Below are positions 1-17,287 of a DNA stretch of 63,755 nt, one piece after another (the first letter of the stretch is position 1; every line of letters begins with the position of its first letter). The stretch spans positions 1 through 63,755 of the forward strand of contig SIBV01000001.1 of the NCBI GenBank assembly GCA_009694965.1. The letters run 5' to 3'. A program made the position numbers and the translations under genes. Below the pieces are notes generated by a model. The model did no database searches, was not told the origin of the DNA, and was given only the letters and a program-made list of their open reading frames with translations. The stretch comes from Candidatus Zambryskiibacteriota bacterium. Lineage in GTDB: Bacteria > Patescibacteriota > Minisyncoccia > Phycocordibacterales > DATDWN01.

Positions 1-161
1 ATAAAATGGGATTTAACATTGACTTAAATACTGTCCCTGATACGGGAGTGGAATGTAAACAACATGGCAAAATGGAACGCTACAATGTCTTGGTGGAAGA
101 TAATGTTTGTCCAGTGTGCGAAAAAAATACTCTTGCTATATTGTCTGTTAGAGTTAATTAA
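1..161 (+). CDS. partial or short ORF with zinc-ribbon-like C-terminus (CxxH...CPxC)
   Basis: Frame open from window edge (possible ATG at 6) to TAA 159-161; translation ...GVECKQHGKMERYNVLVEDNVCPVCEKNTLAILSVRVN; too short for the ORF track. Confidence 0.3.
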   Translation, partial: KMGFNIDLNTVPDTGVECKQHGKMERYNVLVEDNVCPVCEKNTLAILSVRVN

Positions 162-307
162 AAATCAGTAAAGCAATCTAGAAAAACTGAGAAAACGGTC
201 TGGTATTCTAAAATCAAGGGAGCAAAGTGTGTGTGCGAAAGAAGGATGGGTTAAGACTATTTGTATTTTTCAATGAACTTGTGCTACAGTATATTCACAA
301 CTAAATA

Positions 308-420
308 GTTGTATCGAGAGTATGGCGAGAGCAACTGGCTCAAGGACCCATCAGCAACCCTCAGAAATGAGAAGGTGCCAAATCCAGCCAAATAGCGAAA
401 GCTAAATGGAAAGATAAGAC
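308..420 (+). promoter_or_regulatory. SAM-I (S-box) riboswitch aptamer
   Basis: S-box conserved blocks in canonical order: TATCGAGAG / GGCGAGAG / ACTGGCTCAAGGACCCATCAGCAACC / GGTGCCAAATCCAGC / GAAAGATAAGAC; P1 pairs 308-315 with 413-420. Confidence 0.8.
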
Positions 421-457
421 TAGTCATCTATCTTTCCTCATTACAAGAGGAATTTTT
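408..457 (+). terminator. riboswitch expression platform: antiterminator versus intrinsic terminator
   Basis: GGAAAGATA (408-416, 3' strand of P1) can pair with TATCTTTCC (429-437), which overlaps terminator stem TTCCTC (434-439)/GAGGAA (447-452) followed by TTTTT (453-457). Confidence 0.75.
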
Positions 458-468
458 AATAGAAAAAT

Positions 469-705
469 ATGAAAGAAGAAATAACATATCCATGTGTTTA
501 TGCTATATGTGCTGGCATGCCTTGTGGACCAATACTAATACCTGAAGAACACAAGGTATCAGATGAAGCAGTTAATAAATATGTGCTTATGCTAATGAAA
601 ATGTATATTAAAAGCAGAGCTGTAATACGCTGGGATGAAAAAGGAATCAAAAAAGCAACAGAGTTTTGGAGAGATATAAACGGGGGGCCTTGTTATCAAA
701 AATAA
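469..705 (+). CDS. hypothetical 78-aa protein with CX4CX4C plus C-terminal Cys, downstream of the SAM-I riboswitch
   Basis: ORF track; first ORF after the riboswitch terminator; Cys at 9, 14, 19, 75; no domain I recognise. Confidence 0.5.
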   Translation: MKEEITYPCVYAICAGMPCGPILIPEEHKVSDEAVNKYVLMLMKMYIKSRAVIRWDEKGIKKATEFWRDINGGPCYQK

Positions 706-767
706 TTTGAAATAATATGAAAAAATAATTATACAATTCACAGAAAATTGTGTAGAGTAGTTATGTT

Positions 768-1868
768 ATGTCATCTTTAAGTATAGGAATTGTGGGGCTT
801 CCTAATGTCGGGAAATCGACGCTTTTTAATGCGCTGACAAAAAAGTCAGTGCCAGCGGAGAATTATCCTTTTTGTACTATTGATCCGTCTGTTGGAATCG
901 TGCCTGTACCAGACGAGAGACTGTGGAAACTTTCGGAATTCTCTAAGTCTGCAAAGACTATTCCGGCGGTCGTAGAGTTTGTGGATATTGCTGGGCTTGT
1001 AAAAGGGGCCGCAGATGGAGAAGGCTTGGGAAACAAATTCCTATCTAATATTCGTGAAGTTGATGCGATTGTGCAAGTTGTGAGAATTTTTGAAGACGAT
1101 AAGATTATCCACGTGCACGGCGGAATCAATCCAGTCTCAGATATTGAAGTTATTAATTATGAACTTATTCTAGTTGATGAAGAAACAGTTACAAAAAGAA
1201 TTTCAAATTTACAAAAAGATGTGAAGGCTCTGAAGAAGGAGGCGATTTTCGAACATGAGACTTTACAAAAAGTAGATGCACATTTGAAAAATGGAAAACT
1301 TGTAAATAGTATGGATTTAGACGAAAAGGAAAAGGTGGTTGTAAAGATGCTTACGCTCCTTACATTCAAACCGATTATGTATGCATTGAATAAAAAAGCT
1401 GGAGGAACGAACCTTGATGAATTAGGAGACGCCCGATACCAGAAACTAATTTCTTTTTTTGAGGAGAGTCACAGTCAATGGGTAACAATTGACGCTAATA
1501 TAGAAAATGAACTAAAGGATCTAGAAGGAGATGAAAAAGAAATGTTCCGAACTGAACTAGGAGGAAAGGATGACGGAATCAATACTTTGATAAAAGGTGG
1601 ATATAAACTTTTGGATTTGATTACATATTTTACAACAGGCGAAGACGAAACTAGAGCTTGGACTGTACTACGAGACTCAACAGCTCCTGTTGCTGGACAA
1701 GCTATTCACACAGATTTCAAAGACAAGTTTATTCGCGCTGAAGTTGTAGCAACCACTGACCTTTTAGAAGCTGGTTCATATGGCGCTGCTAGAGAAAAGG
1801 GAAAGGTCAGAACTGAAGGGAAGGAATATATCGTTCAAGACGGCGATGTTATAGAGTTTAGAATTTAA
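768..1868 (+). CDS. ychF: ribosome-binding ATPase YchF
   Basis: N-terminal P-loop GIVGLPNVGKSTLFNALT, coiled insertion, C-terminal TGS-like end ...EYIVQDGDVIEFRI; typical YchF/OLA1 length. Confidence 0.93.
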   Translation: MSSLSIGIVGLPNVGKSTLFNALTKKSVPAENYPFCTIDPSVGIVPVPDERLWKLSEFSKSAKTIPAVVEFVDIAGLVKGAADGEGLGNKFLSNIREVDAIVQVVRIFEDDKIIHVHGGINPVSDIEVINYELILVDEETVTKRISNLQKDVKALKKEAIFEHETLQKVDAHLKNGKLVNSMDLDEKEKVVVKMLTLLTFKPIMYALNKKAGGTNLDELGDARYQKLISFFEESHSQWVTIDANIENELKDLEGDEKEMFRTELGGKDDGINTLIKGGYKLLDLITYFTTGEDETRAWTVLRDSTAPVAGQAIHTDFKDKFIRAEVVATTDLLEAGSYGAAREKGKVRTEGKEYIVQDGDVIEFRI

Positions 1869-16864: not shown

Positions 16865-17287
16865 ATGTGGGTATTTTATGCTTTAGTCTCAGCATTATTT
16901 GCGGCCTTAACAGCGATCTTTGGCAAAATAGGTTTGAAAGAAATTGATTCTACTCTAGCAACAACAGTCAGGTCATTCATTATGGCAGGCTTTCTAGGTA
17001 TTACTGCAATTGCATTGAAAAAGTTTCAAGGCTTTTCTTTAGATTCATTTACCAATAAAGAATGGCTATTTGTGGTGCTCTCTGGAGTAGCCGGTGCATT
17101 ATCTTGGCTTTTCTATTTCTATGCTTTAAAGAGCGGATCGGCTCTGGGAGTTTCGGTGGTGGATAGATTAAGCATTATTTTTGTTTTTGTTTTGGCAGTA
17201 ATGTTTTTAGGAGAAAGTTTTACTATGCCTAAAGTCCTTGGGGTAATTTTGATAGCAATTGGGGCTTTTCTAACTACTATGAAATAG
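16865..17287 (+). CDS. EamA-like small transporter
   Basis: 140 aa, 4-5 hydrophobic helices, single EamA-type repeat. Confidence 0.6.
   Translation: MWVFYALVSALFAALTAIFGKIGLKEIDSTLATTVRSFIMAGFLGITAIALKKFQGFSLDSFTNKEWLFVVLSGVAGALSWLFYFYALKSGSALGVSVVDRLSIIFVFVLAVMFLGESFTMPKVLGVILIAIGAFLTTMK

Follow-up and report, generated by a model that had tools for sequence, protein, structure and literature searches.

The SAM-I riboswitch at the start of the contig

The window analysed here, the whole 63.8-kb stretch (63,755 nucleotides, nt) of contig SIBV01000001.1 from a Candidatus Zambryskiibacteriota bacterium, carries near its start an S-adenosylmethionine (SAM) riboswitch of the SAM-I (S-box) class, followed by a 78-amino-acid (78-aa) open reading frame (ORF), a gap of 62 nt and ychF, with no other same-strand ORF ahead of ychF (Table 1). 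The genome amounts to 527 kb in 29 contigs and is 87% complete, and the contig begins only 300 nt upstream of the switch. An earlier note on this DNA had read the locus as a SAM-I OFF switch whose only cargo, and the sole unit before ychF, is an unrecognised 78-aa protein with Cys at positions 9, 14, 19 and 75. This core reading is upheld, and the ORF and the Cys positions check out; in addition, we find that the family of the 78-aa protein (hereafter 78fam) stays physically tied to SAM-I riboswitches and is a small family of Patescibacteria type. Throughout, L denotes riboswitch or ychF loci, P 78fam proteins and G genomes; several of the homologue contigs are short metagenome fragments whose taxonomy is not given.

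In the RF00162 search that the note had proposed, positions 308-420 of the plus strand matched the model over its full length (1-108 of 108) with 56.6 bits, above the gathering score of 44.4, and with an E-value of 9.9e-12 in 3 kb or 2.1e-10 across the whole window. No other Rfam family passes its threshold anywhere in the 63.8-kb window, and the aptamer is the single SAM-I match in the 527-kb genome. The junction blocks (AUC, AGAG, GCAACC...GGUGC and GAAAGAU) are all aligned with high posterior probability, which bears out the description of a complete S-box aptamer with its blocks in order. In the Rfam alignment, P1 pairs 308-315 with 413-420 and contains one G-A mismatch (311/417), while P4 has an internal A-A pair that is common to the related locus L090. 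The kink-turn region of P2 reads AAGGACC where the consensus is aUGAAgCC, and the identical variant is present at L024, where the aptamer fronts the SAM synthetase gene metK.

Further downstream, 408-416 and 429-437 are exact reverse complements and form a duplex of -9.8 kcal/mol, the putative antiterminator. Its distal strand shares 434-437 with the 5' arm of an intrinsic terminator whose hairpin has a folding energy of -6.9 kcal/mol and which was located independently by a terminator scan, as the note had proposed it. The 5' arm of the terminator can pair instead with the 3' side of the aptamer, the arrangement that defines a transcriptional OFF expression platform. When the region 298-460 was forced into either fold, P1 plus terminator gave -35.4 kcal/mol and the antiterminator -35.2 kcal/mol without ligand; a difference of 0.2 kcal/mol is the closeness of conformers that a ligand-tipped switch needs. 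One detail of the earlier description has to be corrected: the pairing of 408-416 with 429-437 is exact as claimed, but 408-416 is not as a whole the 3' strand of P1, which comprises only 413-420, whereas 408-412 (GGAAA) lies on the P4/J4-1 side of the aptamer. Upstream of the aptamer, a putative promoter is recognisable at the level of consensus; in alignments, the counterpart of this promoter-like element is TGCTATAAT in L090, equally far from the aptamer, and the corresponding stretch in L025.

The RNA itself is an ordinary RF00162 member with a classical terminator platform. With the S-box leaders of Bacillus subtilis and other Bacillota (metK, yitJ, met/cys operons) it shares the aptamer class, at full-model length, and the same logic of P1, antiterminator and intrinsic terminator, OFF at high SAM. 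It differs from them in its host, whose ultra-small genome of Paceibacteria (Patescibacteria) type yielded no metK, and in its cargo, an uncharacterised 78-aa protein instead of an enzyme or transporter for methionine, cysteine or SAM; searches of Pfam and NCBIfam placed the ORF in none of the known pathway families that make up the classical S-box regulon, and it has no similarity to MetK. SreA and SreB of Listeria are trans-acting SAM riboswitch RNAs. As in that system, a terminated SAM-I leader RNA would be produced at high SAM from the window; there is no sign of a trans role here, and control in cis is the simplest reading because a conserved coding gene directly follows the switch.

Table 1. 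Features at the riboswitch locus, in window coordinates
Feature	Position	Strand	Basis
Promoter-like element (putative): TTGTAT (261-266), 18-nt spacer, extended -10 TGcTACAGT (282-290)	261..290	+	
SAM-I (S-box) aptamer, P1-P4	308..420	+	RF00162 full-model match
Antiterminator (putative), GGAAAGATA (408-416) with TATCTTTCC (429-437)	408..437	+	exact 9-bp complement
Intrinsic terminator, TTCCTC (434-439), 7-nt loop, GAGGAA (447-452), U5 (TTTTT, 453-457)	434..457	+	terminator scan
Gene for the 78-aa protein (78fam), cargo of the switch	469..705	+	ORF, conserved family
-10-like motif of ychF (putative), TG-TAGAGT, about 10 nt before the ATG	751..758	+	motif likeness
ychF (redox-regulated ATPase)	768..1868	+	TIGR00092, 423.7 bits

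The 78-aa protein family and its linkage to SAM-I riboswitches

Homologues of the 78-aa protein are few. A word-indexed protein search returned two, each exactly 78 aa long and 74% and 68% identical, and a profile search of 1.84 billion representatives gave seven clusters of 72-101 aa together with one repeat-protein false positive; no fusion of 78fam to MetK or to any larger protein was seen among these representatives. With a second indexed search that used the profile, the family grew to about 15 members (90% clustering) that are 41-74% identical. A search of 60 related genomes, including 36 from the same genus, did not recover the ORF, and protein-pattern scans for homologues in metagenome and genome contig collections gave no match. 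Neither were there signs of a phage origin: tblastn against 50,697 phage records gave no match, nor did the viral contigs of IMG/VR. The ratio of nonsynonymous to synonymous substitution rates (dN/dS) of the window ORF, compared with the three closest members for which DNA was available, is 0.16 against L090 and 0.32 against L092, synonymous sites being saturated against L087, and across all non-saturated 78fam pairs it ranges from 0.14 to 0.32, as under purifying selection. By these measures of sequence conservation, the 78-aa ORF is a real gene, of a family for which we found no published description.

The core of the family follows the pattern xPxxxAxxAGM(P/G)(C/F)GPxxIP...YVLxxM...I..R, and in an alignment of 10 sequences (A2) only G20, P21, I24, P25, Y38, L40 and I47 are invariant; the profile built from this alignment, to which the window ORF itself contributes, scores that ORF at 140 bits. 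The proteins are hydrophilic, with an isoelectric point of 6-10 and no membrane segment. An AlphaFold2 (AF2) model from the 10 sequences has a predicted template modelling score (pTM) of 0.59 and a predicted local distance difference test score (pLDDT) of 66, and contains a short strand, a helix (32-45) and a three-stranded sheet; an earlier run with three sequences was poor (pLDDT 55). The absence of a recognisable domain, noted before, agrees with the profile libraries: searches of Pfam, NCBIfam, PHROGs, PADLOC and PDB profiles returned nothing meaningful, and the fold of the AF2 model found no match with an E-value below 0.2 in the PDB or in BFVD (predicted viral structures).

Linkage to the riboswitch is common to all testable members of the family. 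An RF00162 match above the cut-off heads the operon in all eight other testable 78fam loci, or nine of nine when the window is counted; this excludes L085 and L086, where the upstream DNA is too short, and P0002 and P0003, whose upstream DNA was not read (P0003 is preceded by a gap of 210 nt, a size suited to a riboswitch). The scores are 59.0 bits for L075 (P0004), 60.1 for L076 (P0006), 68.5 for L077-81 (P0007), 53.9 for L082 (P0008), 52.5 for L083/84 (P0009), 60.2 for L087/89 (P0014), 52.1 for L090/91 (P0013) and 61.7 for L092 (P0012), with a 109-aa gene between switch and family member in L082 and a 100-aa Cys-rich gene in L092. The earlier note had asked whether homologues of the ORF also follow S-boxes, and every one with readable upstream DNA does; its suggestion of a new SAM-responsive small protein is thereby supported. 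Except for L090, at 89%, the aptamers that front 78fam are 56-70% identical to that of the window, and among them P2 and P3 covary, with double compensatory changes in 9 of 16 predicted pairs. Homology with L090 spans the -10 box, the aptamer, the platform and the ORF as far as its stop codon and then stops, so that promoter, switch and ORF form one unit of about 450 nt.

In its riboswitch-controlled operons, 78fam keeps company with three other uncharacterised families, for none of which the Pfam search gave a match. The first is a Cys-rich, zinc-ribbon-like domain (L076_99 and L092_100, with the variant L086_92 = L044_96). The same domain makes up the core of the L012-type proteins, which rank second among the cargoes of the riboswitch lineage described below, and the C-terminus of L069_304, a protein encoded ahead of metK. 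The domain measures about 95 aa, with about eight Cys in the pattern KCxxCGEY...SCLCxGIxCxxCxKNxIHRPxSN...HWxYFxGM..CxEC, and is found by itself, in a fusion with an N-terminal 75-aa domain that may also include a membrane tail, beside 78fam, or upstream of metK (first ORF of L012/L030/L042/L047/L050/L063; L076:1169-1468; L092:532-834; L069:681-1592). The N-terminal 75-aa domain of the L012-type fusion had been considered as a 78fam homologue, which would have made it a 'Rosetta stone', and was rejected at an hhalign probability of 0.2%. The second partner is a family of 151-158 aa, represented by L090_151 and homologous to the stand-alone cargo of the same riboswitch lineage in L039, L062 and L037. 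Its members carry the pattern ...F(A/V)xxPRxLxVExREELWVFPLN...LYEPDLSSF... (L039:3496-3969; L090:1434-1889), and in L090 the protein is encoded directly downstream of the 78fam member. The third is a 109/255-aa family (L082_109 and L075_255).

The riboswitch lineage, its metK cargo and the supply of SAM

Related loci were gathered from genome and metagenome collections with a 20/21-nt word from P2 of the aptamer, which returned 58 loci, 56 of them genuine and two (L054 and L072) chance matches. Their source labels are metagenome-assembled genomes called Nomurabacteria, Paceibacteria and the like, and the earlier statement that S-boxes occur mainly in Firmicutes needs to be widened, this lineage being common in Paceibacteria/Nomurabacteria assemblies. 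The platform is nearly invariant across the genuine loci (GGAAAGATAAGACTAGTCATCTAT(AT)CTTTCCTC-loop-GAGGAATTTTT). Platform stems were examined sequence by sequence with ViennaRNA; a MAFFT alignment left several platforms out of register. In nearly all of the 34 distinct platform variants, both a terminator hairpin before the U-run and an antiterminator duplex can be folded, the latter between GGAAAGAT and the 5' flank of the terminator; the exceptions are L058 and L076, the stretch analysed for L076 being too short. Compensatory terminator stems are found in relatives (TTCCTG/CAGGAA, TCTCTC/GAGAGA and ACTTTCC/GGAAGT).

The usual cargo of this lineage is metK, the first downstream gene in about 36 of the 56 genuine loci. 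It encodes there a short MetK of 305-324 aa, and MetK of model bacteria has about 385 aa. A Cys-rich family recurs as second cargo in L012, L030, L042, L047, L050, L063 and L067, and the remaining loci carry assorted unknown ORFs. The window aptamer is 87-89% identical to the metK-type aptamers of L057, L071, L024 and L010. When the window is set against the riboswitch-metK units of Paceibacteria/Nomurabacteria (L010, from the same-genus genome G022, L024, L057 and L025), aptamer identity is 81-89% and the platform (GGAAAGATAAGACTAGTCATCTATCTTTCCTC...GAGGAATTTTT) hardly differs; the difference lies in the cargo, where a 78-aa gene takes the place of the short MetK. In L025 the order is riboswitch, metK, 38 nt and ychF, and this ychF is 68% identical to that of the window. 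Thus, for this one syntenic locus, the 78-aa ORF fills the position behind a metK-type riboswitch that is held elsewhere by metK, which suggests that metK and the 78-aa ORF may have been exchanged at a shared site behind one riboswitch lineage.

Three side observations concern the cargo of SAM-I switches. In the metK loci of the lineage (L010, L011, L013 and L017-L073), metK is an accessory gene, and DNA methylases or recombinases are often near. An 87-aa GIY-YIG nuclease ORF lies between the lineage riboswitch and metK in L074 (about 590-860 of contig Ga0114951_10163193). A second SAM-I lineage is present in four same-genus genomes (L003, L005, L006 and L007, from G020, G032, G004 and G007), with the aptamer (ATATTATCAAGAGTGAGCCGAGGGTACTGACCC...) at about 1501-1636 in each and the terminator ACCACCATATCGGTGGTTTTTG; its cargo consists of mutually unrelated small ORFs of 139, 94, 137 or 92 aa, followed in two loci by rplU (L21).

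With regard to SAM supply, no metK was found in the genome under study (87% complete), either with TIGR01034 or by tblastn with MetK of the same genus, and among 41 same-genus genomes only one has metK, there behind a SAM-I riboswitch (L010). The genome nonetheless encodes TrmD, a SAM-dependent enzyme; as far as its completeness allows the conclusion, a cell with such an enzyme and no detectable metK would use SAM but have to import it. EamA proteins of the drug/metabolite transporter (DMT) type are known SAM importers of Rickettsia and Chlamydia, and on this precedent the membrane protein with an EamA domain encoded at window 16865-17278 (81 bits, the sole EamA match in the genome) is a candidate SAM carrier. 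A domain search of the genome returned no radical-SAM domain and no nucleosidase-type domain for methylthioadenosine/S-adenosylhomocysteine (PNP_UDP_1). G065, the genome of L077, likewise has one SAM-I riboswitch, which fronts its 78fam member, and no MetK match.

Proposed mechanism and competing explanations

We infer, with good confidence, that the locus is a working SAM-I transcription-termination OFF switch that controls a genuine small gene, the product of which would be a cytoplasmic factor in the response to SAM shortage, with the switch reading imported SAM. In the mechanism that we propose from the sequence and the folding energetics, binding of SAM would close P1 (308-315/413-420) and so free 429-437; the terminator (434-452 plus U5) would then form and RNA polymerase would halt 11 nt before the ATG. 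Under SAM scarcity, pairing of 408-416 with 429-437 would deprive the terminator of its 5' arm and allow production of the 78-aa protein, possibly with some read-through into ychF. The protein made at low SAM would probably act with the Cys-rich, 151-158-aa and 109/255-aa operon partners.

Several observations weigh against this reading or parts of it. The terminator is short (6 bp with three G-C, and a 7-nt loop), and there is no Shine-Dalgarno sequence near the ATG of the 78-aa ORF. The completeness of 87% leaves the absence of metK unproven. Because promoter, riboswitch and ORF form one unit of homology with L090, the linkage could partly reflect inheritance or transfer of a cassette and not repeated selection. 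Synteny of ychF with the window was found at L025 only, and 29 same-genus ychF loci have no upstream riboswitch and no DNA in common with window 1-767, which leaves a replacement of metK in place on thin ground. Finally, the confidence of the AF2 model is moderate (pLDDT 66), and no fold or family match points to a function.

A wider proposal, possible and in our view rather doubtful, is that in Paceibacteria unable to make SAM the SAM-I switch serves as a gauge of external SAM, perhaps derived from a host, and that 78fam and its partners are a hitherto unrecognised SAM-starvation module that functionally replaces metK in these lineages. Such a module might, for example, scavenge SAM, spare it, or protect the genome while methylation fails.

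The main rival, unlikely in our view, is that the 78-aa protein is instead a defence or restriction-modification factor that responds to the collapse of SAM, caused by phage SAM-degrading enzymes or by loss of host supply, and not a factor of SAM homeostasis; it might then, for instance, protect the host from its own restriction enzymes or trigger growth arrest. The neighbourhoods of several family members resemble restriction-modification or defence islands and invite the idea: L087 has in its surroundings an SNF2/PLD protein, a methylase of the MmeI/Eco57I type and a Zeta toxin, L075 is near AAA_13, DUF2779, Macro and ADP-ribosylglycohydrolase, L077 is near PDDEXK_1 and GIY-YIG, and the contig of P0003 carries ResIII/RE_endonuc, Mrr and DUF2779. 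However, methylases and recombinases are about equally frequent in the flanks of the metK-cargo control, where 21 loci hold four N6_N4_Mtase, D12 and DpnI, compared with two N6_Mtase, one C5 methylase and one D12 in the non-metK set of 18 loci, so that a restriction-modification context is not specific to 78fam. PADLOC gave no match, 78fam was not found in phage and viral collections, and no restriction-modification or defence gene adjoins the window ORF, on the upstream side of which the contig ends.

It is less probable still that the switch serves ychF, with the 78-aa ORF as a passenger or leader-type ORF. The terminator scan found none between the stop codon of the ORF at 705 and ychF at 768, and in L025 ychF likewise follows the riboswitch-controlled gene, after 38 nt; yet none of the eight other 78fam loci has a downstream ychF, the 78-aa ORF is under purifying selection, and ychF has a -10-like motif of its own about 10 nt before its ATG, here as in same-genus genomes that lack the riboswitch, and therefore probably its own promoter. 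That the ORF encodes a Cys-based peptide with a metal or redox role, or else the precursor of a ribosomally synthesised peptide, as the earlier note offered, we regard as very improbable. CX4CX4C is intact in the window protein, P0002, P0006 and P0013, a minority of the members, but no Cys is invariant across the 10 aligned members: position 9 is either Cys or Arg, Ser, Val or Ala can stand in for Cys14 and Phe or Ser for Cys19, and Cys75 is confined to the window protein. Neither a radical-SAM nor any other maturase gene is adjacent and no radical-SAM domain was found in the genome; the best-conserved part is the predicted helix and sheet of a folded alpha/beta core, and conservation does not follow a layout of cleavable leader and core. 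Least probable of all, and largely refuted, is the third suggestion of the note, that the ORF is the remnant of a decayed met gene, and with it the view that riboswitch, ORF or both are decaying relics, a dead metK leader with a leftover of metK. It would account for the lack of metK in a genome whose riboswitch lineage usually carries it, and tblastn indeed found no MetK match there; against this, the aptamer is complete and passes the cut-off, the platform is undamaged and agrees with those of relatives that look functional, the ORF resembles metK neither as protein nor as DNA (blastn of 458-770 against metK loci gave chance-level matches only), and its homologues are under purifying selection, each with its own riboswitch.

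What is unusual about the locus is the combination of a small-protein cargo tied to SAM-I, the sole SAM riboswitch in a genome that lacks a detectable SAM synthetase, and the apparent exchange of cargo with metK. A full-text literature search returned no paper on SAM riboswitches in the Candidate Phyla Radiation (CPR)/Patescibacteria or on the 78-aa cargo, and reviews on Parcubacteria/Patescibacteria mention riboswitches in other contexts only. Few sequence features reveal when a gene is needed; a riboswitch is such a feature, and this one marks 78fam and its three partner families in the operons as required at low SAM. As the hosts are uncultured and apparently unable to make SAM, the label offers a testable entry into the 'dark matter' of Patescibacteria and is relevant to the way in which reduced-genome bacteria manage when they depend on SAM from outside. 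Beyond the Bacillota, the S-box regulon thus includes cargo that has no relation to the known metabolism of methionine or SAM, and the cargo behind one riboswitch lineage appears exchangeable, a small ORF for metK.

Some minor features of the contig complete the description. Just before ychF, the motif TGTTGTATAGT or TGTTATATT is found in the same-genus genomes without the riboswitch and in L025. The -10-like sequence TG-TA(T/G)AGT occurs at window 751-767, at L025:4878-4893 and upstream of ychF in L094-L106; the position of the motif suggests that the ychF mRNA may be leaderless or nearly so. At the start of the contig, positions 3-161 hold a 5'-truncated ORF that ends in a CxxC-type motif (CPVCEK); no related locus has a homologue of it ahead of the riboswitch. 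The contig breaks off 300 nt before the switch, possibly at a variable region. Downstream of ychF, a near-perfect palindrome of 48 nt (2297-2344) lies within the minus-strand ORF 1920-2546 and yields a spurious, sub-threshold mir-4662 match on both strands.

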